Assembly (NCBI GenBank): GCA_008632985.1
Contig: QPGO01000069.1
Span: 124,001 to 188,000, forward strand
Origin: Psammoneis japonica
Taxonomy: Eukaryota
Direction of reading: 5' to 3'
Length of the DNA stretch: 64,000 bases
The notes beneath the pieces were generated by a model. That model was not told the DNA's origin, did not search any database, and saw only the letters and a list, made by a program, of their open reading frames with translations. The first letter of the stretch is position 1. Every line of letters begins with the position of its first letter. Both the position numbers and the translations under genes were made by a program. Positions 1 to 64,000 of this stretch are shown here, in pieces.

Positions 1-427
1 TTTTCTTTGACAGCAAAATGTTCTCACAGAAATCAACATGGCCAGCTTGGCATCTGGTTTGACTTGTTCTCAACATTCTGCTGTTCACATTGCATTGGCA
101 GCAATGGTCATCAAAAGGCTGCATGCACTGTTGTCATCCATTGCCCCTGGACTTGCCTCACCTTCTTCAAGATTTGTGGTGCTGCTTTCATGAACAAAGC
201 TTTGAAGGATGACTCCATTTTCATGTGGCAACATGATTGGGATGAAACACCATGGACATTGTGTGCAACTTGCAAATTGCAGTTAATTTGCCTGAGCACC
301 ACTCCACTGACCTCCTTGCAAAATGCCTTTTCAAGCAGTTGTGCCTGATTGTCGTCAAGCAAATTGCCTGTCTGTCTCATTCCTCAGAAGGTCATGTCCC
401 TGAAAGACAAATCTCTCTGTGTGCAAA

Positions 428-662
428 AGTTGAGATGCAGTCTGCAGCTTGGTGGGGTGGACAAGACCTTGGAGGTTGGCAGCAATGCATGATGGCAACA
501 GAGCAAACAGACGCTTTGATGAAAGTTGTTGTCCAAAAGTTGTGATGAGAAGTTTGTTGTCATTTTGAATCAATTTGTGGGCTTGGCCAAACAAGTTGCT
601 GAAAAGAGCTGAGTCTGGGATGCAGTCGTGACATGCAACCACAATGACATTGAGTCATGACT
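428..662 (-). repeat. 3' LTR of copia element 1
   Basis: Aligns to 7337-7572; preceded on the minus strand by the purine tract GAGAGGGAG. Confidence 0.93.
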
Positions 663-3600
663 CTCCCTCTCAACCAAGAGAGCTCACCAGCCCACAACAG
701 CCTTTCCAGCTGTGTGGAACACATCAGTCCGCAGTCCCTTCGTGAACTGATTGGCTGGTTGCTCCAGAGTGCTGATGGGTTGGATGTTGATCTCCAATTG
801 CTCAACTTTGGTCCTAAACCAGTGGTGTGGGATGCCGATGTGTTTGGTTCATGGAGACAACTTGGGCATGAATGCAAACTTGAGGCATGCAGAGTTGTCT
901 TTGCACACAACGGACGCAGGTGGGACATTCTGCTCAACAGGCAAGTCATCGGTGCCTTGGTTTGCAAGCTCAAAAGCCTTGGAGTGAGTCATGATGGGGT
1001 TTTGGTGGTCAGACTTTCCAAACGCATGGTGGTTGAGCTCCTTGAGAACTTCATGAATGGGGATGAGATCACGCACAGCTTGAGAAAGTGCAACATGTTC
1101 CACTTCCACAGTCGACAATGCTGCAAGAGTCTGCAGCTTGGACACCCAGATGAGCGGGCAGCCGGCACAGCAAATGAGGCGTCCAGTCCTGGACTTGACA
1201 GAAACTGGGTCTTGACCATCTTCCACACCAAACAACCCCACGAAGTCAGAATTGACGCAACAATCAACTCAACAATCTTGTGCAGGCTTGAGAATGAGAC
1301 CTTCAGCAGCAGCAGCAGCAGCAGCTTTGAGGTGTCAGAGCATCTGCTTCACTGCAGCAGTGTGGAACACTCAGGGTGCAAACAAGAGTCAAGCTGCTTG
1401 ATGCATGGCATCCTTTGCTGCCAAGTGCATCAACATTCCAACAACTGAGCGACAATCGCAGGGTTCATCAAAAGGTGGGCCGTCCGTGTCAGCACCGAGA
1501 GGTGCAGGTAGAGCTGGAGCAGATGCTCCATTGCAATCCTCCATCTGTGCGGTGCGCAGGACCTTGTCAATCAGACCTGGTTGAGTGAGTGGAAATCGAC
1601 CCTTGGAGAGCTTTTCAATCTTGATGCTGAGAAAGTTGCCGACTTCTCCTTTGTCTCTTAGTTCAAATGTGCGGCGATGCTTGTTGTCAGAGACTCCTAA
1701 TTTGCGAATCTCCTCCTCCAGAGCTTCAGCTGACGCACCAGCGAAGACCGTGTCGTCGATGTGCACAACACACATCATGCCTTCCTTGACGCACAGGCAT
1801 GGGTCAATGGCTGAAGGCACCCATCCGTGCTCCATCAACCCGTCTCTCAACTTCTCATGGAAACCCTTGGGAGACTGTTTTAGGCCGTGTGGTCCTTTCA
1901 AAAGCTTGAGGACCATGTTGAGTCCCGACCTTGGTGCAAAACCCTTTGGCGGTGTTGTGTGAACTTCCTCGGCAATGTCAGCTTGACAGAAGGCTGTTGT
2001 GCAGTCTGCCTGACGTGCAGTCCATCCCTCTTTCAACACAGTGGTGAGCATCAGTCGGGTGCTGGACCATTGCACAACTGGCGCGTGGGTCTCAAAACAA
2101 TCCATGCCCTCTTTCCATGAATCACTGTGGATGCAGTGTCGGGCCTCACACTTGAGAGGCGTTCCATCTGGTGGTCTCTTGAGTTTGAGTGCCCATGTTC
2201 CTAGAAGCACATTCATCTGCGGCTGACACTCGACTGCTTTCCAGGCTCGATGATGCATGAGTGCGTTGACTTTCATCGCCTCAATCCATTCTTTGGCGTC
2301 CGGTCCTTTCAAAGCATCATGTGATGAAGGTGTGTCAGGGTCCTTGGTCTTCTTGCCAGCTGTGCAGGCTCGTGGATCGTCGACATTGATGGCACCACTG
2401 TCCAAATCCATCTCAAGAGTTGCCAGATGAGCTGGCTGAGCTTCGTGTCTGATCGGCATTGGTGTTTCCTTGATGGAACTGAGACAAACCTCATCCATGA
2501 ACTTGGCAGAGTTGAGCTGTCCTTTGGTTGATTGTGAAGACCATCGCTGCCCTGATGCACCCTCTGGATTCATTGCAGGAGGTGTCTCAACTGGGGGAGG
2601 AGCTGTTGGTTCTGTTGGCACTTTGGGTGGTGGAAGTTCGTCACTGTCTTGAAGTTCGGGTGGCTGAATTGGCGCAGATTCTGTAGAGTCCACAGGAGGT
2701 TGAGTCATAGATGGGGCTGGTGGCATTGGCTCTTGAGTTGCAGGCAAGACTTGATCAGAGGCATTGTCACAAGAAACGGGTGGATCTGGCACAGCAATCG
2801 ATGGAGTTGGCTGAAAGTTGCTGCAAATGCGGTGCTCTCTTGTCAGTTCTCGTTCTTTGTGTTGACGCTCTAGAGGAGTGAGCCACTCATCGTCAAGTGG
2901 GCCAGTTGATCCTTCTCCAGAGGGATGCAAGTCGATTGGTTGAGACACAGTTGCTCCCAGTGGTCAGGTGGATCCGTCTCCCTCTCAATTGATGGCACGG
3001 CAGTGAAGAGATTGTCAAAGACCACATGATGCTGAGGAGCAATGCTTCCAGTTTGGAGATTGAGGACGAGTGAAACCTCACTGGAATGGATGGCACTGAG
3101 TGCCATGAACAAAGCGCAATGAGTCCGGGGTTCCCAATGCGGCAGTTTCTTCCCGGAGGCAATCTTTGGGTCAAGCATGCATGCTGGACATCCCCATGTG
3201 TGAATGTCTTGAAGGCGATGTCGAGGCACTGTCGAACCAGTGAAAATGTCCGCTGGGCAACATCCCTTGGAATTTGGGGTGACATTGTAGATGTGCGTAG
3301 CATGAGAAACAGCCATGGGCCACAGGGAGCTGTCAATTCCTCCCTTCCAGTGGATCGATGCATGAAGCAACATCGCTCTTGCCATGTTGGAGATGCTTCG
3401 GACACCCCATTCTGCAGTGCCGTTCTGATGGTGGGCGTTGGTTCCACAAAACCGGAGACGTTGTTCATGTTCTTGCACATGTTGTGCAAAAGCGTTGGCC
3501 TTGAAAGCGCCACTGTTGGCAAGAAATTCTTGGACGATCACACCATGGTCCAAAGCATGTTTCTCAAACAAGCATGTTTCTCAAATGCTTGCTTCACTCA

Positions 3601-6600
3601 AATCGTCTCGACAGTGGAGAAACCCAGTTGATGCTCAACCTGGATGCATCCAGAGGCGTGATCTACAAAGACACAACCGCCCTTGAATTGCTTGGACGTG
3701 GCTTTGCCACATGAGTTGAAGGTTCGACCCAAGAGGTGTGACTCAAAATGATCAACGCTGACAGCCTGACCCGGTCGGAGATGGTCAGCTTGAAGGGCCC
3801 CGTTGCGTTCAGGGACTGTCATCTTGTGGGCAGAACCGAGAGAGCGTCCGTGACCCTTGGCATGCTCGCGTGCCTTGCATCTTGGGTGGTCACACTTCAC
3901 CGCCAACTTGAAACAATTCAACAGGGACAGAACTGCGTGGAGAAGGGCTTGCACACAACCAAAGTTGAGATGACCAAAGCGGGAGTGCATTTCCAACAAA
4001 AGCTTCTGTCCCGCCGTGAGGTTCTGATTCTCCTTGTTGAGGACCTGCAGATTCACTTGGGGAGCTGCAGATGCACCCTTGGTCATCGACGAAATGGGCA
4101 AGTGGCTGGATTGGTGGCTTGGCATGACCAACTTGCCCACTCTGTCAATGCACAAGCAGAAAGTGTGCTCATTGCCCCTCACATTTCCCACGTGCACCTT
4201 TCTCTTCATCAAAGAGGCGTTGAGGTGATGGCAGGCATTGACGGGCTCCTGGGATGCAGCACGCCATGGCATTCAACTGAATGGCAGCACCACTTGGCAT
4301 CGTGAACACCCACACAACCGGACTGGTGCCCTGAATGGTGAGACCCTTGGCTGTCCCATTGACATGGAGGGGTTTCTTGGGAACAGTCACAGGCCCAGCA
4401 AAATCGTCTTCATGTGGAGTGACAGCTGACATGGCACCAGCATCCATGACAACCGTGAGTGCCTTGTCCGACAGACCGACGAGCACCTGCGTGTCAGATG
4501 CAAGAAGGTCAGCTTGGGATTGTCCGGTGAGCAGCTGGATGGTGGATGCATTGCAGACGACGGGTCTAACACGTGCTGCTTCCAACAATGCACAAGGATC
4601 TTGAAAATGAGTGGCATCCATGATGTGATGAGGGACGCAAAGCTCGTCGAACCGGATGAAATCAGGACTGAACTCCTCAAGAGCATCAAAGAAGTGTTTC
4701 TGCTTGACAAGAGGCTCCAAGTTCTCGCAAGTGTCAAAGAAGGCTGATTCGTCCATCGCATCAGACCGTTCAGCAACTTCTGGGGTCTTCCAGCAGGCCA
4801 TGAGACGAGTGCTCAGTGCACGCGATGGATGGCGCGAGACAAACTCGGCAAGCACTTGCGTGCCCTTGATCTTGTTACATTCGAACAGTGATCTGGCATC
4901 TGACACTGTCCTGTCATCTGGCTCTTCCACAATGTGGCAGACTTGAGAGCTGGTGGTCAAAAATTGGCTTGACCGGCGCAAACTGCTGACCATGCCACAA
5001 CTGCTGTGGATGGGACCATCCAGGAGGCTGGAAACCCGTGCAAGGTTGGGAGTTTGTGCCGGCAGCATGGAGCTTGAGAGGGATGTGTGGGATCGGAGCA
5101 AAGCACAGATGCAGTGCCATTTCCCAAAACATGGCGGCGAGCCAAAACATGCAAAGCTTGGCTCATCCCAAGATTGAGCAACGTAAAGAGGGCTCTTCTG
5201 GTCATCACATGCATCTTCAAAGCATGCTTTGTGTTCAAGAATGAGGTCTAACTTGGTGTCGTCTGACAGCATGTCCGTCAAAGTTCCGGGAGTGTCAAAG
5301 AACTCATCTGGATGCTTGACAGAGTGCAGCTTCGAGGCCAGAAATAACTCAACAGCCGGTGGTTCGTTTTCAAATGCAGACAAAGCGTTGGAGCATTCGC
5401 AGAAGTTGTTGGCATCTTCGGGAGTGACAGTCTCAACCACGATGGGAGACACGATTGGAAGCATGACTGAGGTGAGCACAGGTGGGCTTGTTTTGCTGCA
5501 ATTCACCACAGTGCTAATGACCGCATCGCTCTCCCTTTGGCTGAAGAAGCTGGAGCAACAATGACTGCAGTGGCAACAGGGTCAGAAAAGAAATCTGGGT
5601 CGGCAGTGGCGTCTGCAGCCGTGCACCACATGCCCATGAAAACCAACTCGTTCGGGTCAGACTCGTCTCCCTCTGGTTCCTTGGCAGTCTGAGCTGGCGG
5701 ACCCACAGGCACACTGCCATCCAGATCAGAGACTTGAGACAAATTGCCCACTGGAGTTTCCTGGGGGGGGGGGGGGGGGGGCGCTTGAAGTCATCCTTGT
5801 GTTCCGTGGCAGAGTGACGTTGGTGGACACCCGGTTTGTCAGATCCCTTCACCGTGCACGGTGCACACCACTTCCATTCCTTGCCATTCTCATCCTTTTT
5901 CGTTTCTCTGTCAAACTCAGTGCGCCATGCAGCAACAGGACGTTGTTTCTTCTTAAAAGGATCATCAGCAGGTGGTTGATTTGGAGGTGGATCGTCGTGG
6001 GGCGGTTTGGGGTTGCATTTTGGGCACGTCTTCTTGGTGTGCCCTTCAAGACCACAACCAAAGCAGTGCTTCGTCTTCCCAGGGTTATCTGCAGTCGAAA
6101 GGTTGCTCTTGGGTAGCTTGGCAACCAATGCAGGCCACTCGCCGTCCTTCACGAGCTGGTTGTGCTGCTCTTGAATCCACGCGATGATGCCGACCGGTCC
6201 GAGCATGTTGTGGTTGCTGTCGGACTTGATGTCGGTGGGATTCTTGAGGCGACACTTGTGCTCCATGTTCTTAATGTCATCAAGCTTGTTGTGGACTCTC
6301 TGATTGAAGCATTCAGAGGACGTCTTGGACATCTTGTGGAGCAGCTTGGAGCTTGTGTTTGCCGGAAGCGCGCAGTCGGTCTGCATGATCTTCACAATTC
6401 AAAGTGCTTCGGCAGCAAAGTCTGTGCAATCCTTGCCGGGAAAGTCAACCAAACTGAGGTCTTCCAGCTGCTTCTTGGCCGTCTCAACATCCGTTAGAGC
6501 ACTGGCATTGCAAGTGTCCAGAGCCATCATGAATGGAACAGACCCGGGGCAGTCTTGGAAGTCCTTGAGATGGTTGAACTTGGTCTCGATTTTCTCGCGA

Positions 6601-7323
6601 AAGGCATTGGAGATTCTAGAGTGAACCAGGAGCTGAGAGAGCCCGACATCGTCGAGCTTGATCTCGTCGCACTCGGCATCATCGGCAGCTGCGTTTCTGG
6701 TCTGGTGCTCGTTCACGAGATCAGTCACAGTGAACTCATGTAGATGGTCGAAAATGTGCAGAACCTTGTCGTCGCTGTTCTTGACATGGCAGAAAGTCTG
6801 CTGGCCGTGGGCTTCAACTAGATCTCGAGTGGTCTTCATGAAGTGGTCCTTGTCAAGCTCGTTGATGGGACTGTTTGAAATCTCAAGTCGACCGTTGAAC
6901 TTGGAAGTCATTGCGGAAGCTTGTTGATCTTGGAGGGATCGTTCTGTCAAGTCGAGAGCCTTGGGATGACGGCACTGAGAGGCAAACCGGTGTGTTCATT
7001 GTGAGGTTTGAGCACAGGTGTCATCTAGTTTGGAACCACCAATGTAGACCCCGTGGGTTTGGTGAGTTCCACCACGTGGCGGCTTGGTTGGAGGCAGAGG
7101 AACGGTTGCGGTGGCGTTTGCGGCCATGGCATTGGCAAATGCCTTCACCAGGACATCCGAATCGATGGCAGTCATGACAGAGAGTGTGGTGTGGGAGGTT
7201 CTTGACAGCATGAAGACGAGAGAAGCAAGCGAGTCTCAGCCAGTTCCCGGGTTTGCTTCAAAATCAAAACGGAAAGCGTCCGTGATGATGACTCGGTCAG
7301 GAGCTCTCATCAATGTGCAAGCT

Positions 7324-7336
7324 TGGGCTCACAACC
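7324..7336 (-). other. Primer-binding site complementary to the anticodon arm of initiator tRNA-Met (half-tRNA priming), with one T>C change
   Basis: Plus strand reads TGGGCTCACAACC versus the tRNAiMet arm TGGGCTCATAACC; abuts the 5' LTR. Confidence 0.75.
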
Positions 7337-7572
7337 AATCAAGACACAGTCCTGCAGCTTGGCAGGGTGGATGAGACATCGGAGGTTGGCAGCAACACGC
7401 AATGGCAACAGAGTGAACAGACACTTTGACGAAAGTCATTGTTCAAAAGTTGTGATGAGAAGTTCATTGTCGTTTTGAATCGATTTGTGGGCTCGGCCAA
7501 ACAAATCGCTGAAAAGAGCTGAGTCTGGGATGCAGTCATGACATGCGACCAGAATGACGTTGAGTCATGACT
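7337..7572 (-). repeat. 5' LTR of copia element 1
   Basis: Aligns to 428-662; followed on the minus strand by the PBS. Confidence 0.93.
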
Positions 7573-8804
7573 GCAAAGCTCTGCTTGATTGAAGCTCCTT
7601 GTGACAAAAGCAAAGGATGTGTTGCAGGTGCTGATGGAGAGGAGGTTCTGAGAAAGATGATCTCCAACTCCACCTTGTCACCACCCCACTGGCACTGCTT
7701 CTGCTCTGGTGTGTGAGCCAGCACCAAAACTGCTCAGCACCAACATGTTGTGCCTGCCAAGACCTGCATCACTCTGCTCCTCCCCACCATGCAGAAGCCA
7801 CAAAGTTCTGTCTTTGACCCCAAATCAAAGCTCTGGATGGAGCACTGGACATTGTCCCTTCTAAAATGGCAGCACAAGTGTCTTGCCAAAAAGCTCCAGT
7901 GCACACAAAATGGCAGACAAGAAACAGGCTTACAAGCATCCAGCACAGAGCCTCTTTGGCATGGTTGCCAGCTTTGCTGGTGACACGTTTCCAATGGAAG
8001 TTCATTCCAGCCCAGCAGCTCCAGACATTTCTGACACAAGAGATGTCATGTGCCTGCCAACTTGATTGCATTGACAAGCATCCACAGCAGAGGCTCCTCA
8101 CACACACCAGAGACTTCTCAAGAGATCACTGCAGCTCCTCTGCTTGCACACCAGATGCAAGCCCAGCACCTCTGGCCCCTGCCAACATTGGTGCTCACCA
8201 TCATTTTGGCATTGCTTTTACAAGCACAGGCCCTGTGGTCACAACGGGCTTGACACCACAAGATGTTCAAGGACCCCCTTTGCAACCTTTCTGCAAAGCT
8301 CTGGCAGCTGGCTCCTTGGCAAACCTGTGCATGCATCCTGACACATGCTTCTTTGTTTTGACTTCCAAGCAAGGCATCAAGAAACTGAAAACACTCCTCT
8401 GAAAAGCTCTTGTTCTGCTTGTTCTCATCTGTCCAGCAGGAGACAGACCTGCATTGTCAGAGCACACAAAAGCCTGGCTTTTTTGCCTGTGCACAAAGCT
8501 TTGGCCCTGCTCTTGCCTGCAGCAATCAAACCACAGCTTTGCCTGCAGATTGCATTTTTTGATGGGGCAAAGCCCAACCCTGTCAGAAGCCATGAAAGCA
8601 CAGCTGGCACACACAGCCAGCAGTGGCAAGTGGTGGCCACAAGCTGTGCAGCTTCAACCCCAAGGAGGCAGCTTCTACAAAGGGCAGTGAGCCAAATCTG
8701 CTTCTGTGGTGCTGATGCTGGCAGACAGTGGTGGTGTGCCAAGAGATGGTGGTGTGGCCCTCAGGCTCTCTGGGTTGCACTGAAGCATGCGCCGCCAGTG
8801 CAAT

Positions 8805-9127
8805 TGTTGAACCAACAAGTCAATGTTGCCAAAAGGGAATCCTCTGAGGTTTCCTTTGCCACTTGTTGCACTTGTCTTGAAGCTCTGAACACACTTCAAT
8901 CTCTCAGATTGTGACAGGCACCTGCTGACACCACAAAGCAATTTGTGAGCCAGCAGATGATTCACTTCAAAGAGTGAGATGATGAAGGAAAAGGTTGGTG
9001 AGATTGGTGATGAGTGCATGCTCATTTCTCAGGTGTCACCAGGCAGATCCACCAGGTCAGCACCAAAAACATCTTTTCTTCAATGATCTTGATTCTGGGT
9101 TTTTAAATTTCCTGCTCATTCTAGACA
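8805..9127. repeat. Diverged LTR-like direct repeat, copy A (solo LTR or distal LTR of copia 2)
   Basis: Starts TGTTGAAC; shares blocks with 15074-15401 such as ggttggtgagattggtga and tgcatgctcatttctcaggtgtcaccag. Confidence 0.7.
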
Positions 9128-9699
9128 AGCCATGTGCACTGGTGCAAAAATCACACAAAATTTTTATGTAGAAAAAAAGCACAAAAATCAGGGTTTGGGT
9201 TGATTTTTTTCTCTTGCATCTGCCATGCTTCTTGGCTCCACCGACACCTCAAGGAATCAATTTCCCCTGAAACCATTGACACTTTACATGATGACTTTTA
9301 AATGAGCAACATAATTCTGTGAATGAGCACTTCAAAATTCCATTTCCCAAAATTCGATCAGCACTTCACTGCGGTCCCACCACGGCAAACATTTTCGAAT
9401 GATGGAATTTTGCTGAACAGCAGGACATTGTCGTGTCTGTCATCAAAAAGCAAGTGCACAAAGTGCCAACCATTGTGACTGAAATCAATTCCTTGAGGTC
9501 GTGACCCATTTTTTACAAAGTGTGGGAAAAGGATGACAAACAAGACATTCTACGTGAATTTTTTGTGTGAGTTTTGCACAAGAAATTGGCCCAAACCCAG
9601 ACTTTTGGGACTCCTGATGCTCGCAACAATGTTCAAAACCACTCATGTGATTCCCGCTTCTTGGGATCCTTGTCACCTTGTGGCTCACCAGTCTGCTCA

Positions 9700-12100: not shown

Positions 12101-12127
12101 GTGCATGACTCAACATGTTCAAAAGAT

Positions 12128-15050: not shown

Positions 15051-15073
15051 TGCTTGTGACTTTTTGGAGTGAA

Positions 15074-18060: not shown

Positions 18061-18079
18061 CCCCCATGCCACTTGCCAT

Positions 18080-54078: not shown

Positions 54079-55536
54079 ATGTCGTCCGCAGCAAAATCCG
54101 CTCCCATGCTAGGCGTTTTGCAAGCCTTGGTCGAGAATGATTTTCTCGTGCACGTCCGGATTGTTGTGCATGGCCGCACTGCCATGCAAGTCGATGACGA
54201 GGATGACGACGTCTTGACCTTGTTTTTGGCACCAGACACGACCGTGACGGAGCTCAAATTCATGATCCAACAACGTCTGGACATGGACCCGGCGGAACAA
54301 TGTTGGAGCATCGTTGCCGAAAACGGAGCTACGACACCCATCTTTTATGGCTCAATCGTGCACTGTCTTGGTAACACTGACAACCCCAGACAACTTGTCA
54401 TTCATTTGCAAGAACGCCCATTGGACCCACGTCTCGTAGCGCTTTATGAAATTACTGGCTACAACGATGGCATTCATGCGGAAGCAAATAATGATGCTAC
54501 AGCTGAAGCCATGCCCGGTTGGCAAGAACGCGACAAGATTTCTCAACTCATGATGCAGTCACGCCTAGCCCAACAATGTTGGGCTGGCCACGAGCTGACC
54601 GACGTGTCAAAGTACTGGAAACACTTGCAGGAAGAAACCAAAGACGCCTCTGTCACAAATACCAAATGCCCTCCTTGTGTTCAATGTGGCTTCTGCTACA
54701 AGGCCACCTCTTCGTCGTCGGTCAGTTATGGACAAGGCCCCCTGATTCGACAAGTTCCCATGGCTTGTGCGCATGGAGCGCACTGTCGAGAGGAGCAGCC
54801 ACCATCGCAATTTGCCGTGGTACCCTGTTCAACCTTTGTGTTGTGTCAACCGTGTTATCAACGAGATCAAGGACGGCCTTCGGAAATTTTTGGTGTCGGC
54901 CAACAGGGCAATGGCGGAGACCAAAACCCTCCACAAGACTTGCACCAGCCCGTGGCTCAAATTTCCAATCGAATCATGCAAGACTTGTCGCGCTATGCTT
55001 GTGGCTTCGGTGGCCAGGGACACCTGTGTGGATACAGAATGATTCAATTGCCACATACCCATGCCGAGTATAGTTGTCACCGTTTGAAGCAACCCGATCC
55101 GCGTGATGCGCAACAAGGTCGTCGTTCCAATTGCCGCCGCCGTGGCATTCCAGGTTTGCCCACGACGGCCGTTTTTCCGGCCGGCATTTGCCTCACGGTG
55201 CGTTTTGATGATGACGTTCGAGCCGTCTTGCAAGCGGCAGGAAAGTTGCCTCAATTGGAACAGCTCGAAATGACCGACCAAGTCCTTTTGGATGACGACG
55301 GCAAGAATCCACGCCACGTGTATTGCAGAGACATTATGAACTACCGGGACAGTCTCGAACGAGACAAGGACTTGTGGCCCCTTATTGTAACAGAATGGCG
55401 CAATCGCTTTCCCTTTTACAGTACCTATGACGGCGGACCGTGTACGCCCTATGTCACAATTTGCTTTCGTGGCCCTGTCACTATGGAACGAGCCGAAATG
55501 TTGGTTCGTGTGCACATGTCGGATGGAGATTACTAA
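54079..55536 (+). CDS. Hypothetical protein with ubiquitin-like N-terminus and Cys-rich (ZZ-like) zinc-binding region
   Basis: Intact ORF with normal Tyr usage; LTLFLAPDTTVTELKFMIQQRL..D..EQ; CVQC..CAHGAHC..LCQPCY. Confidence 0.7.
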   Translation: MSSAAKSAPMLGVLQALVENDFLVHVRIVVHGRTAMQVDDEDDDVLTLFLAPDTTVTELKFMIQQRLDMDPAEQCWSIVAENGATTPIFYGSIVHCLGNTDNPRQLVIHLQERPLDPRLVALYEITGYNDGIHAEANNDATAEAMPGWQERDKISQLMMQSRLAQQCWAGHELTDVSKYWKHLQEETKDASVTNTKCPPCVQCGFCYKATSSSSVSYGQGPLIRQVPMACAHGAHCREEQPPSQFAVVPCSTFVLCQPCYQRDQGRPSEIFGVGQQGNGGDQNPPQDLHQPVAQISNRIMQDLSRYACGFGGQGHLCGYRMIQLPHTHAEYSCHRLKQPDPRDAQQGRRSNCRRRGIPGLPTTAVFPAGICLTVRFDDDVRAVLQAAGKLPQLEQLEMTDQVLLDDDGKNPRHVYCRDIMNYRDSLERDKDLWPLIVTEWRNRFPFYSTYDGGPCTPYVTICFRGPVTMERAEMLVRVHMSDGDY

Positions 55537-57280
55537 GAAACATAAATATCGTATCCCTGTTACTTAAAATGATTGCCTCGCATGATTTCGTTGGTACTTC
55601 CTCTCTCTCGATTAGAGTCCCTGCTGGAGCTGATCCCAGTCAACATCTACGCATTCCAATCTCCTTGTCAACGACCACCAACTGACACCCAAGACGTCCT
55701 TTTGCTGTAGCGTGAAGCGTGACAGAACTTATGGCGACGAAGCGCACGCAGACGATAATGGAACTCGTATGTAGGAGGCATGTTCAAGAGGCTGCTGCAT
55801 TCAATGTTTGTGCGTGAGAGGGACCATTTTCACACAATCATTGTACTGGAGAGAGACTGCGGCTATTCTAGGATCGCCGATTCACAAACAAAGACAGAAA
55901 TCTCTGCTCGCGGCAATCGTTCAGATTTTCATCCACTTCCGATTCGCCGGTTTGGCAGACACTTCCCCCAAACATTGGTCTCTTTGGGATGTGCCACCCA
56001 ATCTTCAACCCCAGACCCACAAGCCCAGGTGTGGTGGTCATGAAAGGACAGCAGGGTGGCACAAAATGAGCATTTTTGGAAAGCTGTTTGAGCTCATGGC
56101 CAGTGGCATTCACACCAAAGTTGGCTGTCCTCCTGCAACAAGGGAGCAAGATCAAGAGCAGATGGCTCAGGAGATGAGCCAAACAAAGCATTGCAGGCCT
56201 GTCCAGCAGCAACTCAAAAGAAAGGCCTTTGTCAAAAATGTCAAACAACACACTGCAGGTGCTGCTCCAAAGCCAAGGAAAGCTGCAAATGCCCTGGCCC
56301 TTGCCCACAGATTGGGTCTGCACATTGTTGTGAGAGCTCATCTTGAGCAACAATCCTGGCTTTCTTGCACAAAGCCACCAACACCAAGCAAGGCAAAAAG
56401 TGCACACACAATTTTTGATTTAGCTGGCAACCTTTGGGTGCATTCCCAAACTTTTCCTGAAAAGAAAAGCAGCCTCTGGAACATTCCAGTCAAAGCAAGA
56501 GAGGACATTGTTGTCATTTGTGAGCACTTGGTGGGGTTTCCTCATTGCTCTGGAAATGCTGGGCACAAGTTCTTCCAAAGCCACAGGCCACAAACACCAG
56601 GACAGAGCAACAAGGTGGAGGTGTTCCTTGTGATCAGACAACAAGTGCTCCTTGACACCGCAGACAAGCTGAAGGTCTGCCTCACAAGTGCAGATGATGT
56701 GGAGATGGCGGAGCTTGCCATTGCCTGGCTCCTTGAAAACCATGACATTGACAATGTCATGCCAGCAGCCACAGAAGCAACCCCACTTCAACACACAGTT
56801 GACAAGATTGTGGCTCAAGTCTGGCCAAGAGTTTTTGATCACTGGGGGGCAGCAGAGGAGAGGTCATGGCATTGGGGGTGGCTGCGGGCCAAAAACATGC
56901 AGGTTTGTGCAGAGGCTGCCAGTGCGTTGCTGCACAGAAAGGCAACAATGATGCCAATGTCAAAAGTGCAGGTGTGGTCCCTCATTGCCATGTGTTCCTT
57001 GTGCCTGGGCAGCTGAAGCTCAAGAATTGCAGGGTGCTCAAGTGTCCTCCCACATGGCAATGCAGCCATTGTTGTTTTTTGCTCTTCTGCTGTTCTGCCA
57101 ACAGTCTTGCCAATCTGGCCTGCTTTTGTCATGGCTGCAGCCATGTGCCAACTGTGATGCCATTGCTTGAATTTCTTTTCAGCTCAAACTAAAAAGGGAG
57201 GAGAGGTGCCACCCACCACATTGCAAGAGTGATCAAAAACCACAATCCCCAGCCATGACAAAAAAAAGCACAGTTTTGAA

Positions 57281-57668
57281 TGTGGGCGAAGATTGGTCGA
57301 GACAAACTGCTTTTTAAAGAGGTCACATGCCTGGCGGGGCCTTTGTGAAGCGACTCATTTAGTCCACTTCACACAGCAAGCACCCCCAAGGTTGACAGAA
57401 ATTGAAGGCAAATGGCAAGAATTCAAACAAGAACTCCTCACTGCTGTCTAAATGGCAGATGAGTCTCCGCTCAGAGACCGTCACAGGAGCCGAAAGACAT
57501 GCAAGTCGGTGTGATCGGGCTGCTGTTGTCATTCTTGTGAGCCTTGTGGCTCGAAAGCAAACTACATTGCGCGCGAATGCATGGAACTAAAGCACACAAA
57601 ACTGTGCGCAGCAAACTAAACAGTGCGCGACATTTCGCGCGCACCCAAATCCTGTTCAAATCCTGTCA
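57281..57668 (-). repeat. Probable 3' LTR of copia 3 (left boundary uncertain)
   Basis: Minus strand starts TGACAGG directly after the PPT; a TG at 57281 gives TG...CA ends, but the partner LTR is not in the window. Confidence 0.55.
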
Positions 57669-60600
57669 CTCCCCAGTTTGCTTGAGGAGCCACAGAAACA
57701 GATTCGACTTCAGATGGAATGAAGTTCCAGAACATGAGGGGGCGGAGAAGGTCCCAGACTTGGGAGTGACCCCAATGCTTGCTGAGAATGTCAGCAGGGT
57801 TGCGGGAGCCTTCGATGAAGTGGAGCTCAAGGCAACCAGAGGCAATTGCCTCACGCACACGGTGGAACAACAGTGCGGTGTGTCGCTTGTGTAACTTGGA
57901 GTGCGGGATGGTGGCACTGTCTACAACCGACTTGTTGTCACCGAACATGTGACTGATGTCACGGATCGGGACGCCAAGGCAGCGCAGGGTGATGCGCAGG
58001 TCGACAATCTGCTCGACACAAGTCCTTGCGGCAACAAATTCAGACCCGCAGGTTGCAGTCTCCACGGTGGCTTGCTTCTCAGAGAACCAATCAGCCGGGA
58101 ATTTGTTGAGGAAGTGGAGCATTCCCATGACAGAGCGTCCGGTGAGCATGCAATGGTGCAAGTTTGCATCGACGCAGTGGGTGGCAGTGACGAACTTGCC
58201 AAGGGGCGGTGGAGCGTCCTTCGGGATCATCTCTTCTGCTTCGCCGCACACGGAATGCATCCATCCACAGGCCAGAGCAGGGAGATCCGAATGGTCAGGC
58301 TCTTCCGTGCGAACGCGGAGAGCGCCGTGTCGCATCTTGGAGAGGCACCCACAGACGCATTTGGCACGATCCAAGTGGCCTTGACGGGGCGCAGCTCGGA
58401 AGCTAGAGAGTGACATGACGGCCGTGGCAATGTCAATTCGACCAAGGGACACTGCCCATTGGAGTGAACCAACAAGAGACTGGAACTTGTGAATGCCATC
58501 GGGCCCCAGCAGTTCGGAAGTGTCCAGTTCGGGGTGGTCACCCTTCTCCAGAGGTGACAGGGCATTGGCGGCAGGTTTCTCCCCAAACAGTCGGGTGCAG
58601 CTGTCGACCATGCACTCAATGCACTTGCGCGGAGACAGGCACAAGGTGCCATCGGGGTCCCGGGAAAAGTCGCAGCCCAGATGGAACTCAATCGGTCCCG
58701 CACCCTTGAGCTTGAACTTGTGCTTTTCCGTGAGAGTGTCGACGAAAGATTGAGGGTCCTTCATGGCAATGGCGAGGTCATCCACACAAACGGCAATGTG
58801 TTTGCAGTGGTCGCCGTTCCTGCGCATCCAAATGTCGGGTTCGGCACGGCAGGGGAAGAAACCTTCAGCTCGCAGGCAGTTGGCGAAGCACTCGTGCCAG
58901 CGGAGGCCGGAGCTGCGCAGTCCATGCAGGGCCTTGTGGATGACAAGGATGTGGCCTTCGAGTTTGCCAAATTCAGGTCCGGCTGCAATGTAGAGCTTCT
59001 CCTTGGTGGTGGCTTCAAGGCAGGCATTGCCAATGTTGGTGGCCCATGTCTCCAACTCGTTGAGTTCGGCTGGGAAAATCATCAGCCGAAGGCCATGGAG
59101 GGAGACCACTCTGGAGCAGACACTGTCGATGGGTGCGTCCGTGAGGTGCCCATCGGCTGCGAGTCGTGCCTTGTGGCGACCATCGTGTTTCACGTCGTAC
59201 ACTGGTTGCACTCGGATCTTCTTGTGTCCCGCAGGAGGAGTGGAAGACTTGGAGGGCCCGCAGTCATGGAAGACTTCGCATTCCTCGAGTTGGTCCATCT
59301 CGAGATTAGTTGCGTCTCCCCATTTGCGGTTGCCATTGCGTTCGTCTAGTGACATGGCATGTTTGCAGTTCCGGGGAACTTCGCATCCGCACTTGTGGCG
59401 AGGTGCAGTGCAGAAGGAGCGAAGCTTGGCTTGGTTGGCCATGTGGAACAGCTTCTTCTGGTGCCTCGCGATGGTGCGGAACCGCTTCCAGCCATCAGTG
59501 TCGAGAAGTCCGTTCTCTCGTGCATGGATGGCGCAGGTGACAGGGTCGTCCTTGGCGATGATGGCAAGAGGCTCGGACATGATCTCCCCACTTTCCCATT
59601 CAAGCACAATGTTGTAGCTTGAGCCTTTCCAGGTTGGGTCATGAGGCTTCAGAGGTCCTTCGTGTGACACAATGCGTCGAAATTTCCAAACAGCAGTGTC
59701 TTCGTCTTCTTGCTCAATGTGATTCATGATGTCGTTGCAGGCCAGGACTTCCTCTTGTTCGTCGTTGTTGACAGAGCAGACAAACTTGGTGAGCTCGGGA
59801 TTGCCGTTCACTTTCCATTCGTGGTCTTCGACGGCCTTGACGATGCGAGCTCTGTGGCGTTGTCCGTCCTCTTGTGGCTGCATGAGGAAGGTGCATCCGA
59901 TGATGTCTTGCGGATCGAAAACTGGCATCTTGGGTGTCCTGATCTCCCCATCAGGTGAATCGACGGGGTTGTCGTCATGGCGAGATTTGATGATGGGTTC
60001 AGGTGGCTCCCCCCATCAGGAGGATCAAGACACAGGTTTCGAATGGCATGATCGGTGGCAGCGGATCGTACGTTAGACCGGCAGAGGATCTTCTGAGTCT
60101 CGTCAGAGAGAATCTTGAAGGTCATCTGGTGGCCGACATGCTCAGCAATGCCAACAAAGCGTCCACGCAACTCACGGGATTCGGACGGCCAATCGGAGTC
60201 ATCGAGGTGGAAGCACATGGGTTCCCACCAGTGAAAGCGAAGCAATGGGCTGATGTCCGGGGTGGAGCCAGTGAGAGTCTCGAGGGGCGTGCGCCAGTGG
60301 AGACGTGGGGACGCTGCATGGTTGAGTGTGAAGCACACGCACATGAGCGCCAGCAGCCATGTGTGGGCAGGCGAACCGAAATGATCCATGACAGTGTTCG
60401 CCATGCGCTTCACAGTCTGGCATCGACGTTTGGCAAAGTTTTGGTGTTGCTGGTGAGGCTCACTTTGCCAGCTGGAGATGAAGAGGGCTCGTAGGATCCC
60501 GAGCACCTTGTTGCTGATCTCAACTTGAGCACGGTCGCCAATGAGTTTGGATGGAGCACCACGCTCACGGATCTGATCCTTGAGTTTGTTGACAAACTCT

Positions 60601-62814
60601 TTGTCCGTTTTGGTGCCGCAGACGTCAGTGACGGTAGACTTGGTGCCAACAAACAGTTGGGCGCTGGTGCAACCAGAGTCGATGGCCGGGGTGTTGGCAC
60701 AAACGGCGTCAGTGGCGACAGGCTCGTTGCGGCGGTGCACATTAAGGGCGGGGTTGGGCGATTTGCAGGCCTTCCTGAGGTGTGTGCCGGCGGGCATGCG
60801 GGCGCACTGCGTGGTGCAGTCGAAAGTACGACGAACCGCATTGGCAGGTTGGAAGCCAAAGCAAGGCCGAAGAGACTCGAAGGGGGGGTCCTTGGGCTGC
60901 ACAGTGCGCTCCAGGGGCGGAACGTCATCATCCTTGGGGTCAATCGCGTGCAGATGACACTCGCAGAACACGTCGTCATTCGGAATGAGATGGTCATCGA
61001 GGGCGGACGCGTGATCAGCAGACAAGGAGGCGGACATGATGGTCTTGTTGACAACGACACGATGACGGCAGTTGCCACATTCGTCAAATGGGTTGGCAGT
61101 GGGATCATCCTGTGGGTCAGAGATCGCGTCGCACCACTGATCGTTGTCAGTGACAGAGTGATCGAGGACGGAAGGATCCCATGTGTCATCACCGGTGAGG
61201 ATGACATGGGGCAGGGTGTCCCATTCGGCGTCAGTGCAAGGTCGCATGGCAACACAGGGCAGGCCGCCCTTGATGTCAATTGGGATGACACAGCCATCAG
61301 GGGTGGCAACGCGTTGCAAGCCGTTGGGCACCTTGACAGAGCGATCGTTGACATCCTGTTTGCACCATCCGAGCTGGCTGCAGGAATGAATGGTCTTGCC
61401 CTTGCCCGTGCATGCGTGCTGATGGAGGATGGCGATGACGGGACCACGCTGGGTCTCAATGACGGCACCAGCGGTGACAACAGGGATGTCCACCAATTGA
61501 TGGTCGTCAATGCCCTGAACGTCGACTTGGCGAGAGGTTGCGTGCAATGACGCAAACGTCGTCGCCAGCAATGCCGCCGTTGGCCCCACGATCGACCAGA
61601 GCACCAGTGCGTGTGGAGGGATGAGCAGAGGCAGAGCAAATGACATTGTGGTTGTCAACGCGGCGGCAAGTGCGGCCATCAAGTTCTGTGTCATCGGCAG
61701 GAGCTGGCGGAGTAGAGGGAGCGGCGGATGGCCCCGGTCGACTGGCGTTGGGGGCTTGGTCAGGAGACAACAGACATTGCAGATCACCGGGTGGCAGTGG
61801 CTTGCGCTTGGTGAGGTGCGCCAGGATGGGATTGTCCGAAGTGGCACCCACATTTGGAGCGGGGTCACCAGAGTCAGCAGGAGTCGTGTTGGACAAGTTG
61901 ACATCACCGTCACTCCCAAGGCGTTGGTCGTGAAGGTTGGCCGTAACGGACTCATGGCAGTTGCTGGCTCGCGGGTTGCGGGGAGGTGGACGAGAATGCT
62001 CAAGGATGATTGCCTTGGAGGAATGGGGCAACGAATCCCAAATCTGTTGGTGGTCGGGAGGGAGACGTTTCCATTGGTCACCGGTGAGGCTGGGACCGCG
62101 GGTGCAGGCAGCATTGGCCTGAAGGATGTCAACATCGCTGTCGATGTCATGGAACACATCATTGGACGGTTCCTCAGAGTGGACATCGTGTGCGTGTGTG
62201 GCACGTCGGGGAGCTCGAGGTGTCGTCTTGGGTTGAAATGCACTGTCGCATTGAGCCGCCGCGGAGAGGAGCAAGCCACAACGTTGATCACATGTGAGGC
62301 TCTTGCCACTCTGCGTGCGATGCTGATCAGCTTGGTTCTTGACAGCACGGAGTTCCTTGACAGGATGTGCGGCATTCTCGAGCATGACGCGCTTCTGTCC
62401 TTCAGAGAAGTGGTCACTGGCCGGGATGAGTGCCTCATGCTTGCGCAACTGATCTTGCCAATGAAGGATGAACCCGTGGGTCGGACCTTTCCAAGCACCA
62501 TCACCAAGACGTGCGGTGGCAAGGTGCATGAGCAAGGTGGAGGACTCGATGGATGCACGGGTGGAGGCGAGCGCATGCTCGGACAAGGCGCGGTGGACGG
62601 TCTGGGTGTCAGAAGACCCCACATTTTTGCAAATGAGAGCCTTGCCCTTGTCGGTGAGAAGGATGCGTTCGAAGATGGCGAACATGCACTTTTGCTGTTC
62701 AGCAAAGAGCAGTTTGTCTTCGGGGCTGGTCGGTTTGTACGACGAGTCGAGAGTGCACTCGACGTCTTGGGCACGGGCTTGTGCCACAAGTGAGGTGTGC
62801 CAAGTGTGCCACTG

Positions 62815-63202
62815 ACGGGCTCCAGTCCCAGGTGGGACTCCGTGTGACATTTGGCCCGCAGAATTCTGCGTGCGAGCTCCGTAGTGCGAGAATTCTGTTG
62901 ATGGATGTGTTCATCTTCAACATCAAATAAACGGCCAAGTTTGTGGTGCAATTGTGCCTCTTGCCACTCGACTTTTTTGCAAATGCACCTGCCCCACACG
63001 ATTCTTAAGACATTGTAGAATCGCGCTGTAACAAAAAATGTCAAAAGTTGTTGGACGGATCGCTCAATGAGTGCACCGTAAAATGACAAAAAATGTCGAA
63101 AAAATCATGTAGAAATCTACGTGCGCGACATACGACGTGATCCAAAAAACTGTCGATGTCACAGTTCAGCAGTGCGAGGTCCCACCCAGACCTAGAATGC
63201 GT
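62815..63202. mobile_element. 388-bp non-autonomous element (MITE-like) inserted in copia 3 gag
   Basis: 6-bp TSD CCACTG (62809-62814 and 63203-63208); imperfect ~26-bp TIRs (ACG...GGTGGGAC); removing it restores gag KSDKQW-HTWHTSLVAQARAQ. Confidence 0.85.
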
Positions 63203-64000
63203 CCACTGCTTGTCAGATTTGAGAGCCGTGAAAGTGGTGGGGTCACGCTTGATGCCTCGCTTGAAGTCTCATGCCGGGTCGTGTGCCTTGGTCGGGTTGG
63301 TGACATGCGGAGGTGCGAGGGGCAAGCTGCCGACGGACACAGAAGACATGCAGTCGGGGCTGAGGCAGCAGGCAAGGAACTCCTCATGCATGAACAACAA
63401 GGAGTCATTGGCAACATCAAGACCTTCGTGTGCTTTGACAATGTGCAGACTGGTCAGAGCTGCTAACATGTTCTTACAACCGCGGGGCAAAGGGATCACA
63501 TTGGTGCCATCATCGCACTCAAGCGAGTCGATTTGTGACGGCATGAACATGAACAGTTCTTGGCGCGAGTCCGTGCCGTCGTGGGTCAAAGCCAAACAAA
63601 GAGGGCTCCCAGCACCTTGGGCAAGCACAGTTCCAACAACGTGCTCAAAACCATCGGTTTGTTGCTGACGAGTGAGAACCATGGCAGACAAAAGTGGTGT
63701 CAGGACAAGCGATTCTTGTTGGGACGCGAAGGCAGACTTGAAACTTGGGTGAGAATGGACTTAACTTGAAGTGGACTTGACTTGAAATCTTGAACTACCT
63801 TAAAATCAGAAGTCGCCAGGCTGTGCTGTCCCGATCATTGTCAAGTGCTAAACTTCCCATCCGGTCCGTAGAGTTGTGCCGGCACGTGCGAACCCACAGC
63901 CAGCGGCGCTTTGGGTTGCTTGCAAGCGGAGTAGCGGGTTGTAAACCCCTGCAGGCAAGCTGACTGGAGGTGGACAAGACCCCCGAACCGTTCTCATTTT

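Follow-up and report, generated by a model that had tools for sequence, protein, structure and literature searches.

TpA Depletion in Transposon DNA of the Diatom Psammoneis japonica Points to Probable TpA-to-TpG/CpA Hypermutation

Results

TpA Depletion in Transposon Blocks

We analyzed a window of 64,000 nucleotides from Psammoneis japonica (GenBank assembly GCA_008632985.1, contig QPGO01000069.1, positions 124,001 to 188,000 of the forward strand), and its transposable element (TE) DNA is probably near-saturated by TpA transitions that occurred on integrated double-stranded DNA, along with a slower decay of CpG. We give a probability of about 0.8 to this reading, in which the process is of the type described in Bigelowiella natans (Mettrop et al., bioRxiv 10.64898/2026.01.13.699255). 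The 40,480 bp of TE blocks contained 180 TA dinucleotides, when mononucleotide shuffles (n = 200) gave 2,409 ± 33, with a minimum of 2,339, and the TA density of the host DNA predicted 1,477. The observed/expected ratio (o/e) of TA was about 0.03–0.15 in these blocks and 0.46–0.56 in genes, i.e., TpA was depleted about 10-fold, and CpA was enriched. This is opposite in direction to fungal RIP, as the earlier note on this DNA had stated, and RIP, which would be a change of CpA to TpA, was rejected on these grounds. Both TG and CA showed raised o/e values in the TE blocks, from about 1.3 to 2.02. The sum of TA, CG, TG, and CA represented 23.7–24.8% of the dinucleotides in all the blocks, including those of the host, and this constant YpR total indicated that the TA and CG that were lost had turned into TG and CA. 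Outside TA, A and T were retained, with o/e values of 0.64–1.15 for AT and 0.86–1.48 for AA in the TE windows, underlining that the loss is one of TA context rather than of A:T pairs in general, as previously proposed. In the open reading frames (ORFs), Tyr represented 2.47% of the residues in host genes and 0.38% in TEs, whereas the figures were 1.86% and 4.47% for His, and 1.69% and 3.81% for Cys.

The depletion affected several unrelated element types: two Copia elements, one LINE-like region, and one tandem array. The Ty1/Copia assignment was based on RVT_2 in elements A and C, and on the direct repeats flanking A. At the left edge of the window, a TA-free and CpG-free repeat relic (1–437; o/e of 0.03 for TA, 0.05 for CG, 2.02 for TG, and 1.87 for CA) was followed by the minus-strand Copia-type LTR retrotransposon A (438–7572; RVT_2, E 9e-26), with a TA o/e of 0.068 (28 TA) and a CG o/e of 0.54. 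The earlier count by hand, about 29 TA over the first 7.6 kb, turned out to be exact (1 + 28). The putative LTRs of Copia A are direct repeats at 438–662 and 7347–7572 (86.7% over 226 bp), and its reverse transcriptase (RT) ORF is at 1389–2948 on the minus strand. A second TA-free, CpG-free relic (7573–8866; TA o/e 0.053, CG 0.047), for which Pfam gave no match, separated Copia A from a putative old LTR element, B (8867–15396; TA o/e 0.050, CG 0.165). The latter is bounded by direct repeats at 8867–9122 and 15151–15396 (81.9% over 259 bp, 83% in the aligned core), and its interior was beyond recognition, with no match in Pfam. The TA-poor flank at 15397–15945 (2 TA in 549 bp, o/e 0.053) stopped about 260 bp short of the stop codon of a host SDR gene, and TA density was normal from 15,945.

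The host gene island (15946–36255; TA o/e 0.49–0.56, CG 0.98) was recognized by Pfam matches, and includes genes for the SDR, an LRR protein, RPL9, a RelA/SpoT homologue (RSH), a PALP+ACT enzyme, a parvulin, an AAA protein, and a PCC-domain protein, along with an NDC10-like repeat ORF. The homology of RPL9 and RSH identifies the host as a diatom. The TA o/e was 0.49 at 15946–18446 and 0.56 at 20615–36255, in line with the normal TA content claimed for the genes at 16–36 kb. The NDC10_II-domain ORF (18635–20614, minus strand) is multi-copy, with a summed contig depth of 185–430 over its region versus 46–86 next to it, and has a TA-poor 3′ part at 18447–19007 (TA o/e 0.11, CG 0.50). Its copies elsewhere differed from the window at TA sites, and among the variants between copies listed for 17.3–20 kb, 9 of 21 were exchanges of TA with CA or TG. 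This repeat is multi-copy yet mostly TA-normal, which argues that copy number alone is not the trigger.

To the right of the island, block D (36256–45500) was the most decayed repeat DNA, with o/e values of 0.041 for TA, 0.11 for CG, 1.94 for TG, and 1.78 for CA, and it contained a tandem array with a unit of about 190 bp (approximately 41221–42414, found with TRF), whose copies disagreed as TG versus CA at identical columns. The LINE-like non-LTR retrotransposon region (45501–53560, minus strand; TA o/e 0.15, CG 0.73) has an endonuclease ORF at 50200–51972 (minus strand; Exo_endo_phos, E 1.6e-10) and a weak RT match, below the Pfam cut-off, in the minus-strand ORF at 48494–49744 (RVT_1, E 0.0028). 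A TA-normal island (53561–55870, plus strand; TA o/e 0.46, CG 0.98) lies between depleted blocks, and its 519-aa ORF (53977–55536) matched nothing in Pfam, NCBIfam, or PDB. It was followed by block E, a TA-free and CpG-poor relic (55871–57500; TA o/e 0.049, CG 0.19), and by the Copia-type element C (57501–63100, minus strand; RVT_2, E 1.6e-21), with a TA o/e of 0.099 and CpG nearly intact (CG o/e 0.83). The RT ORF of Copia C is at 57616–59928 (minus strand); no LTRs of this element were detected within the window, and Pfam detected neither integrase nor gag in the Copia elements. The right edge (63101–64000; TA o/e 0.27, CG 0.79) was partly depleted.

The borders of the depletion were sharp, at about 15,945, 36,255, 53,560, and 55,870, and at most about 300 bp from host genes, in agreement with the claim that the loss is restricted to transposon DNA. 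The intervals that the earlier note described as nearly devoid of TA had o/e values of about 0.03–0.10 up to 63.1 kb, and were mostly right; the LINE-like region at 45.5–53.6 kb has to be added to them (o/e 0.15), and the interval given as 55.9–64 kb held to 63.1 kb, with only partial depletion from there to 64.0 kb (o/e 0.27).

Direction of Change in Conserved Tyrosine Codons

Next, the direction of change was read from the RT proteins. When compared with 57 homologues, Copia A kept none of the 12 Tyr-consensus columns, where it had six His (CAY), four Cys (TGY), one Phe, and one Trp, and it kept 176 of the 250 other consensus columns. Similar results were obtained with 150 representative homologues (Tyr columns, 0/4 kept; other columns, 86/106 kept), and Copia C kept one of six Tyr columns. 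Several of the motifs previously cited were confirmed: in Copia A, YVDD is HIDD (CAC at 1761–1763) and DCFETH is found, and in Copia C, YVDD is CVDD (TGT at 58786–58788), accompanied by ALHGL, NACL, and TCGSE. With conserved Tyr changed to CAY or TGY in 10 of 12 columns and kept in none, the proposal that TA>TG and TA>CA transitions cause the deficit gained support from Copia A.

This state could be due to an inherited TA-poor composition or to selection, such as avoidance of UA in transcripts or a horizontal origin of the elements, to which we give very little credence. The 519 aa of Copia A contained no Tyr, and all 69 of its closest database homologues had a normal content of 2.1–5.1%. Moreover, the TA o/e was at least 0.43 in 77 of 80 environmental loci of the Copia A lineage, which indicates that lack of TA is not inherent to this Copia family. 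Copia A has lost the catalytic Tyr of YVDD and every other conserved Tyr, the state is common to unrelated element classes and non-coding repeats, and the LTRs are 14.5–17% diverged, all of which speaks against inheritance. One environmental locus, L039, had a TA o/e of 0.14, yet contained 10 Tyr and an intact YVDD, so selection can overlay the pressure, and some elements may survive under TA loss.

The same signature was found in 2 of the 80 environmental Copia loci, and three of the 150 database homologues were Tyr-poor and had these Tyr columns occupied by His or Cys, often with the opposite outcome to that in Copia A. These different outcomes at shared columns point to independent hits. 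Logan contigs from runs X1 and X2 matched the TA-free sequence, with four differences along a 1,104-bp contig (13,832–14,935) and none in a 401-bp contig; these runs are probably the assembly's own sample and do not represent independent support. A sequencing, polishing, or assembly artefact, in favour of which nothing was found, is almost certainly not the explanation: these short contigs were separately assembled and reproduced the TA-free sequence, the signature recurred in the unrelated environmental contigs and database proteins, the depletion was limited to TE blocks that end sharply beside normal genes, and the changes were coherent at the codon level.

Changes on Both Strands, Probably of Integrated DNA

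The RT ORF of Copia A contained six sense T>C and four sense A>G changes, and the order of TG and CA was random along every element (runs-test z from −0.4 to +2.2), with no strand-coordinated clustering. The presence of both His and Cys outcomes in one ORF, with no strand runs, bore out the view that both DNA strands are hit. The putative LTR pairs have diverged by 14.5–17% since insertion, mainly at YpR sites. In the pair of Copia A, 29 of 34 differing columns were at YpR, including nine discordances of TG versus CA; no CG was conserved, and 11 columns had CG in one copy versus TG or CA in the other. Both TA and CG fit as the ancestor of the TG-versus-CA discordances, with TA and CG loss near saturation there.

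The elements could also have arrived already mutated, by ADAR-like A-to-I editing at UA of retroelement RNA fixed by reverse transcription, which we consider very unlikely. ADAR-type enzymes prefer a 5′ U (Discussion of 10.64898/2026.01.13.699255), and editing before integration would also place borders at element ends. In addition, the plus strand of the LINE-like region had a CA o/e of 1.55, above the TG o/e of 1.33, which implies that TA>TG was more frequent on the coding strand. However, sense T>C was as common as sense A>G in the Copia A ORF, the Copia elements showed symmetric and unclustered TG and CA, the LTRs diverged after insertion, mostly at YpR, and the tandem array and unrecognizable relics were depleted equally. 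To our knowledge, ADARs are known only from animals. The B. natans mutations, moreover, appear in resident single-copy DNA (10.64898/2026.01.13.699255). Editing fixed by retrotransposition was thus rejected, on the counts of six versus four, the lack of clustering, and the diverged LTRs, and transitions on integrated DNA are the reading that we retain.

CpG Decay and Flanking-Base Preference

CpG loss was uncoupled from TA loss, as Copia C had o/e values of 0.83 for CG and 0.10 for TA, and block D, 0.11 and 0.04. Over the TE blocks, the CG o/e spanned from about 0.05 to 0.83, versus 0.98 in genes, and by block, TA loss was generally more complete than CpG loss, the relic at 7573–8866 having nearly equal values. 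CpG decay runs alongside TA loss as a slower process of its own. Deamination of 5mC at CpG as the sole cause was rejected, since TA is also gone and Copia C lost it while keeping most CpG; the earlier distinction between the pattern and 5mC deamination therefore stood.

The TA remaining in TE blocks relative to host density, which is used here as a proxy for ancestral TE composition, depended on the flanking bases, from 0% for ATAT to 70% for TTAA; the TE/host ratio ranged from 0 to 0.70 for TA and only from 0.41 to 0.71 for CpG. A strand-resolved flank model was borne out only partly: the predicted product class was favoured about 2.6:1, assuming an even split of CpG products, and three of six Tyr>His codons were preceded by a pyrimidine, where the model expects a purine. 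First-position A>G replacements had a preceding T in 6 of 12 cases versus 18 of 73 in the control, which is suggestive only.

TpA and CpG, which are both palindromic YpR steps, might be removed by one enzyme with specificity for both A and C, and this we find unlikely. Both dinucleotides become TG or CA with the YpR total conserved, and the ADAT2 enzymes known from amphioxus and Trypanosoma accept A as well as C for deamination (cited in 10.64898/2026.01.13.699255). Against this, the CG o/e varied widely across elements while that of TA stayed low, and CpG loss was nearly flank-independent when compared with TA loss. Among diatoms, P. tricornutum carries its CpG methylation chiefly on transposons, and such methylation would alone account for CpG decay. 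A passage of PMC6604790 documents CpG methylation in this species.

Discussion

In the preferred reading, TA>TG and TA>CA transitions would strike integrated double-stranded chromosomal TE copies almost to saturation; the target would be selfish or repeated DNA, and the action would cease a few hundred bases from host genes. The elements would be destroyed by conversion of Tyr codons to His or Cys codons, with TAA and TAG stops removed as well. The agent may be an enzyme that modifies bases at the T:A pair of TpA, presumably with the best activity where the step is flanked as RTA/TAY, and might be recruited by the silencing machinery. As for the chemistry, we tentatively favour adenine deamination to hypoxanthine by an ADAT2/TadA-like enzyme, short of an even chance; thymine oxidation of the TET/JBP type, via 5hmU or 5fU, is rather doubtful, and some other chemistry is somewhat more probable than the latter. 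Whatever the candidate enzyme, it must reproduce the flank hierarchy, with ATAT the most and TTAA the least affected.

The signature in a diatom-like genome means that the process is neither a one-species curiosity nor confined to viral insertions, and it provides a second lineage for the phylogenetic profiling of candidate enzymes. TpA hypermutation may be widespread in marine protists, given the 2/80 environmental loci and 3/150 database homologues. It is conceivable, though we would not presume it, that a silencing-mark-guided editor of TpA in double-stranded DNA, acting best on RTA/TAY, is a SAR-wide conserved defence arm, present in diatoms and chlorarachniophytes and mirroring RIP. If true, it would kill transposons and integrated viruses through the loss of Tyr codons, and the stops left in relics would be almost all TGA. 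An enzyme that edits A:T pairs of double-stranded DNA at a defined dinucleotide is also of interest for base editing. Relics retain few TAA and TAG stops, so that spurious long ORFs run along both strands, and relic proteins drop below family-detection thresholds, a hazard for annotation.

Before 2026, essentially the only known cases in which point mutation was targeted to the selfish DNA of cellular genomes were fungal RIP and animal APOBEC/ADAR editing. RIP converts CpA to TpA, enriches TA, lowers GC, and is set off by duplication. Like the pattern found here, it alters repeated or selfish DNA irreversibly and in place, by point mutations specific to a dinucleotide, stops sharply at single-copy genes, and leaves the elements dead. 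In contrast, TA is erased and GC goes up in the window, and the multi-copy NDC10-like repeat was largely spared. ADAR and APOBEC target a single strand, of RNA or cDNA, and leave strand-asymmetric, clustered changes; they share with our case the hypermutation of selfish elements, driven there by deaminases, and ADAR the preference for a 5′ U, but the changes here were symmetric and unclustered. The deamination of 5mC in transposons similarly leads to CG loss in TE blocks, with TG and CA as products, but it cannot remove TA, and is slower, uncoupled, and little dependent on flanks. Oxidised thymines can mispair with G, and this is the basis for linking 5hmU to T>C mutation. In dinoflagellates, the modified thymine 5-hydroxymethyluracil is enriched on repeats and silences TEs, and earlier work found T to be preferentially replaced in TA and TC dinucleotides (both in passages of PMC11572971). 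The likeness is a thymine-based mark concentrated on repeats, whereas these passages report no TA>CA mutation signature.

The closest system is that of B. natans, in which integrated viral DNA is hypermutated de novo from TpA to TpG or CpA; among 231 new mutations recorded in two such integrated regions, 230 were A>G or T>C, all on TpA (10.64898/2026.01.13.699255). This preprint updates the earlier note, which knew of no description of the pattern. As in B. natans, the window showed A:T>G:C transitions at TpA on both strands of selfish DNA with host genes spared, TA changed only to TG or CA, and CpA and TpG were enriched; RT coding sequences are in the depleted set here, and RT and DDE domains are over-represented among the TpA-depleted coding sequences of B. 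natans (10.64898/2026.01.13.699255). The hosts differ, a diatom (Stramenopila) versus a chlorarachniophyte (Rhizaria), and so do the targets, retrotransposons and repeat relics here versus NCLDV or virophage insertions. The depletion is near saturation here (o/e 0.04–0.15) versus a Rho of 0.45 in the B. natans NCLDV region, and events measured de novo there are deduced from standing sequence here. A flank hierarchy was found in the window, and the main text of the preprint describes none. Collectively, this window adds to TpA hypermutation a second lineage, saturated retrotransposon targets, and a flanking-base preference.

TA Depletion across the Window

The dinucleotide profile showed that several blocks of the window were almost devoid of TA. 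The observed/expected ratios (o/e) of TA and CG were 0.49-0.56 and 0.98 in the host gene stretches, and 0.46 and 0.98 in an island at 53561-55870. The corresponding values were 0.03 and 0.047 in the edge block (1-437), 0.068 and 0.54 in the Copia-type LTR retrotransposon Copia A (438-7572), 0.053 and 0.047 between this element and the next (7573-8866), 0.050 and 0.165 in element B, a putative old LTR element (8867-15396), and 0.053 and 0.167 in its flank (15397-15945). Further along, they were 0.041 and 0.11 in the decayed repeat block D (36256-45500), 0.152 and 0.73 in a LINE-like region (45501-53560), 0.049 and 0.19 in a second decayed block, E (55871-57500), and 0.099 and 0.83 in Copia C, another Copia-type element (57501-63100). 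Combined, these transposon (TE) blocks contained 180 TA in 40,480 bp, against 2,409 ± 33 expected from 200 mononucleotide shuffles and 1,477 expected from the host density. The near-absence of TA proposed in the earlier note was thus confirmed, and its count for the first 7.6 kb (29 TA) was exact; its main depleted blocks also stood, but the depletion at 45.5-53.6 kb had been overlooked, and 63.1-64 kb is depleted only in part.

The borders were sharp: dense TA starts at ~15,945, 260 bp past the SDR stop, and ends at ~36,255, 300 bp upstream of the PCC-domain gene, and the island is flanked by similar borders at ~53,560 and ~55,870. In the TE blocks, the o/e of TG and CA rose to 1.3-2.0, and TA, CG, TG, and CA together made up 23.7-24.8% of the dinucleotides in each block, host included. 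Since this total is constant, the lost TA and CG are now TG and CA. AT and AA had ordinary o/e in the TE windows, indicating no loss of A/T beyond TpA.

Separate assemblies of X1 and X2, two sequencing runs of one public sample, yielded contigs that reproduced the TA-free sequence; a contig of 1,104 bp over 13,832-14,935 had 4 differences from the window, and one of 401 bp had none. These contigs excluded a polishing artefact, with the qualification that the X1-X3 sample is probably the source of the assembly, and the agreement is therefore not independent.

Elements and Reading Frames in the Depleted Blocks

Pfam searches placed RVT_2 (Copia-type reverse transcriptase) ORFs at 1389-2948 and 57616-59928, both on the minus strand. 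An Exo_endo_phos endonuclease with a weak, sub-threshold RVT_1 match was found at 48.5-52 kb, also on the minus strand, and represents a LINE-like element. Direct repeats at 438-662/7347-7572 and 8867-9122/15151-15396 formed the putative LTR pairs A and B, and block D held a tandem array (41221-42414) of about 7 units of ~190 bp, 72% alike. The remaining long ORFs of the TE blocks had no Pfam family match. In these blocks, numerous long ORFs on the two strands overlap one another because TAA and TAG stops have been lost (~1-3 per kb versus 7-8 in host DNA), with TGA kept at ~20-27 per kb. Very long overlapping ORFs of up to 1,098 aa, on both strands at 59811-63104 and 60413-62910, had no family match either; their simplest explanation is the TAA/TAG loss in TA-free DNA, and gene finders would over-call stop-depleted ORFs such as 59811-63104. 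The LINE-like region 45501-53560 was alone among the blocks in its visible strand bias: on the plus strand, the o/e of CA (1.55) exceeded that of TG (1.33), equivalent to an excess of TA>TG on the coding strand.

Direction of Change at Tyrosine Codons

For the Copia A reverse transcriptase ORF, the 57 nearest homologues in the database were mapped onto the query, giving 262 columns with at least half of them agreeing. None of the 12 Tyr columns was kept in Copia A, where they are now 6 His (CAT/CAC), 4 Cys (TGT/TGC), 1 Phe, and 1 Trp, versus 176 of the 250 non-Tyr consensus columns. At the 30% rate of change of the other columns, the probability of 12 changes out of 12 is ~0.3^12, roughly 5e-7. 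With 150 representative homologues and a 60% threshold, Copia A kept 0/4 Tyr columns and 86/106 others; for Copia C, the figures were 1/6 and 66/143. Tyr amounted to 2.1-5.1% in all 69 closer homologues and was absent from the 519 residues of the Copia A query. Moreover, eight TE ORFs contained 0.38% Tyr, 4.47% His, 3.81% Cys, and 2.05% Trp, versus 2.47%, 1.86%, 1.69%, and 1.12% in six host ORFs. In place of the catalytic YVDD, Copia A has HIDD and Copia C has CVDD, as had been noticed, and both copies are dead. These results, with 10 of the 12 Tyr columns of Copia A now His or Cys, supported the mutational reading, TA>TG/CA.

Both Strands Are Hit after Insertion

One Copia A ORF holds both T>C changes (to His) and A>G changes (to Cys) on its sense strand, and this bore out the claim that both DNA strands are hit. 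In three Tyr-poor database homologues (P0147, P0184, and P0266), His or Cys occupied the Tyr columns of the query, often with the opposite outcome, suggesting that TA>CA and TA>TG arose independently at homologous codons. Editing of a single strand by a processive single-strand deaminase would leave strand-coordinated clusters of TG or CA. The order of TG and CA was random along each element, with like neighbours at 0.47-0.52 versus 0.50-0.52 expected; runs-test z values were -0.4 to +2.2 in the elements and -2.8 in the larger host stretch. The runs test thus detected no strand-coordinated clustering along the elements, a signal that saturation and pre-existing TG/CA would dilute, and single-strand editing was set aside.

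The putative LTR pairs were 85.5% (A) and 82.9% (B) identical. YpR steps (TA, CG, TG, or CA) faced each other in 29 of the 34 differing columns of pair A, with 9 TG-versus-CA discordances, and in 21 of the 50 of pair B, with 10. This showed that the LTR copies were hit independently after insertion. The discordances were discarded as proof of post-insertion hits on TA itself because a CG ancestor is also possible, both dinucleotides being saturated, with 0 conserved CG in the LTRs. TG and CA alternatives also occurred at the same columns between units of the block D array, where, as in the LTR pairs, a TA or a CG ancestor would account for them.

TA Loss Is Separate from CpG Decay and Depends on the Flanking Bases

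Deamination of 5-methylcytosine would remove CpG and also generate TG and CA. In the TE blocks, CG o/e varied widely (0.05-0.83) and TA o/e was uniformly low (0.04-0.15), in agreement with the earlier note's separation of the two processes. Relative to the host, Copia C has lost ~15% of its CpG and ~80% of its TA, indicating that TA loss is several-fold faster than CpG loss and independent of it. In the diatom Phaeodactylum tricornutum, a mutation-accumulation study mentions CpG methylation and reports a GC>AT bias with CG as the most mutable dinucleotide; the word 'transposable' is absent from the accessible text of that paper (PMC6604790).

With host composition as a proxy for the ancestral state, the TE/host density ratio of NTAN was 0 for ATAT, 0.01 for ATAC/GTAT, 0.013 for ATAG/CTAT, 0.05 for GTAC, 0.08 for ATAA/TTAT, 0.11 for GTAA/TTAC, 0.14 for CTAC/GTAG, 0.20 for CTAG, 0.50 for CTAA/TTAG, and 0.70 for TTAA. 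By class, it was 0.019 for RTAY, 0.097 for RTAR/YTAY, and 0.43 for YTAR. Unlike TA loss, CpG loss was nearly flank-independent, with TE/host ratios of 0.41-0.71 across flanks. A roughly additive per-strand model fitted the data, with T-A-N rates in the order T > C > G > A or, in the equivalent form, N-T-A rates in the order A > G > C > T, and tests of its strand-resolved predictions were weakly positive.

Host Genes and an NDC10-like Repeat

The host genes at 16-36 kb have few introns. The RPL9 ORF (22884-23468, minus strand) had 76-85% identity to its best matches and no identical match; the organism-named matches were all diatoms (Ditylum, Discostella, Eucampia, Cyclotella, Thalassiosira, and Skeletonema), except for one fused plant protein. 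The RelA/SpoT homologue gave the same picture at lower identity, and both genes point to a host of the diatom lineage and not Bigelowiella natans. The RelA/SpoT homologue (24103-26479; HD_4 and RelA_SpoT) continues in a second frame from 25940 to 26479, so that a short intron or else a frameshift lies near its 3' end. Another gene (26573-28083, minus strand) encodes a threonine dehydratase-like enzyme, a PALP protein that ends in an ACT domain; it occupies two adjoining frames, 27244-28083 and 26573-27238, probably because of an intron. At 32510-35137 (minus strand), two ORFs with weak domain matches lie side by side, one of 685 aa (AAA_16/AAA_22) and one of 189 aa (Zeta_toxin-like kinase, sub-threshold in Pfam at E 9e-4). 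Searches of Pfam, NCBIfam, and PDB gave no hit for the ORF of the TA-normal island (53977-55536).

An NDC10_II-domain ORF at 18635-20614 (652 aa, E 1e-32), adjoined by a 184-bp tandem duplication (17681-18053), lies in a stretch (17303-20614) with a summed contig depth 3-6x that of its neighbours and is a multi-copy element, possibly Crypton-like. Its 3' 560 bp were TA-poor (o/e 0.11) and the remainder near normal. Among the window-versus-contig differences listed (40 of 115), 9 of 21 at 17.3-20 kb were TA<->CA/TG exchanges, unpolarised. The repeat is possibly an unsaturated case, and its merely local TA depletion indicates that copy number alone does not lead to saturation.

The Signature in Environmental Sequences

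We surveyed 80 metagenome loci encoding relatives of the Copia A reverse transcriptase. TA o/e was 0.43-0.91 in 77 of them and 0.37 in one, and the remaining two, neither with a DNA-level match to the window, showed the full signature. In L030, the o/e was 0.04 for TA, 0.20 for CG, 1.64 for TG, and 1.69 for CA, and its reverse transcriptase reads CVDD, with 2 Tyr per 335 residues. In L039 (TA 0.14, CG 0.10), the Copia reverse transcriptase (545-1570) retained 10 Tyr and an intact YVDD, and 13 of the 16 residual TA lay in NTAC/NTAT, the contexts given by Tyr codons. Selection thus appears to have preserved this element against the same mutation pressure.

Possible Mechanism and Comparison with Known Systems

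Collectively, the TE blocks carry TpA transitions on both strands of integrated DNA; these stop at sharp borders and vary with the flanking bases. We infer a defence function and an enzyme, which would modify the T:A pair of the double-stranded TpA step and would be recruited to silenced or selfish DNA. TpA is self-complementary, so A>G and T>C on opposite strands are one event with the same flanks, and sequence alone therefore cannot separate adenine deamination from thymine oxidation. We give deamination of adenine to hypoxanthine by a deaminase a probability of about 0.4. In every known tRNA substrate of ADAT2/TadA, U33 precedes A34, a context that would fit the TpA preference. Some other chemistry is possible and only slightly behind. 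Oxidation of thymine by an oxidase is the least likely of the three. In the telomere repeats of kinetoplastids, base J takes the place of a T that precedes A, and 5-formyluracil forms mispairs with G. In dinoflagellates, transposons are marked and silenced by 5hmU, and older work cited there found that 5hmU replaces T preferentially in TA and TC (PMC11572971).

The earlier note knew of no previous description of this pattern, a statement now overtaken by one 2026 preprint on B. natans (bioRxiv 10.64898/2026.01.13.699255); our full-text literature search turned up no account of TA>TG/CA hypermutation outside this species, diatoms included. According to the available text of the preprint, 231 of the 302 nuclear single-nucleotide mutations in mutation-accumulation lines fell within two integrated viral regions, and 230 of these 231 were A>G or T>C, all on TpA (10.64898/2026.01.13.699255). 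Rates there were ~1000-fold over background, only some lines were affected, and an ADAT2 homologue was proposed as a candidate. The preprint also describes a subgroup of 324 coding sequences depleted in TpA, in which reverse transcriptase and DDE domains are enriched; its main text, as available, makes no mention of flanks, which the supplementary mutation list may hold. To the B. natans system, the window adds a distant second lineage in which the targets are retrotransposons and are saturated, a TA loss that is independent of CpG decay and follows a hierarchy of flanking bases, and environmental sequences that hint at the same signature.
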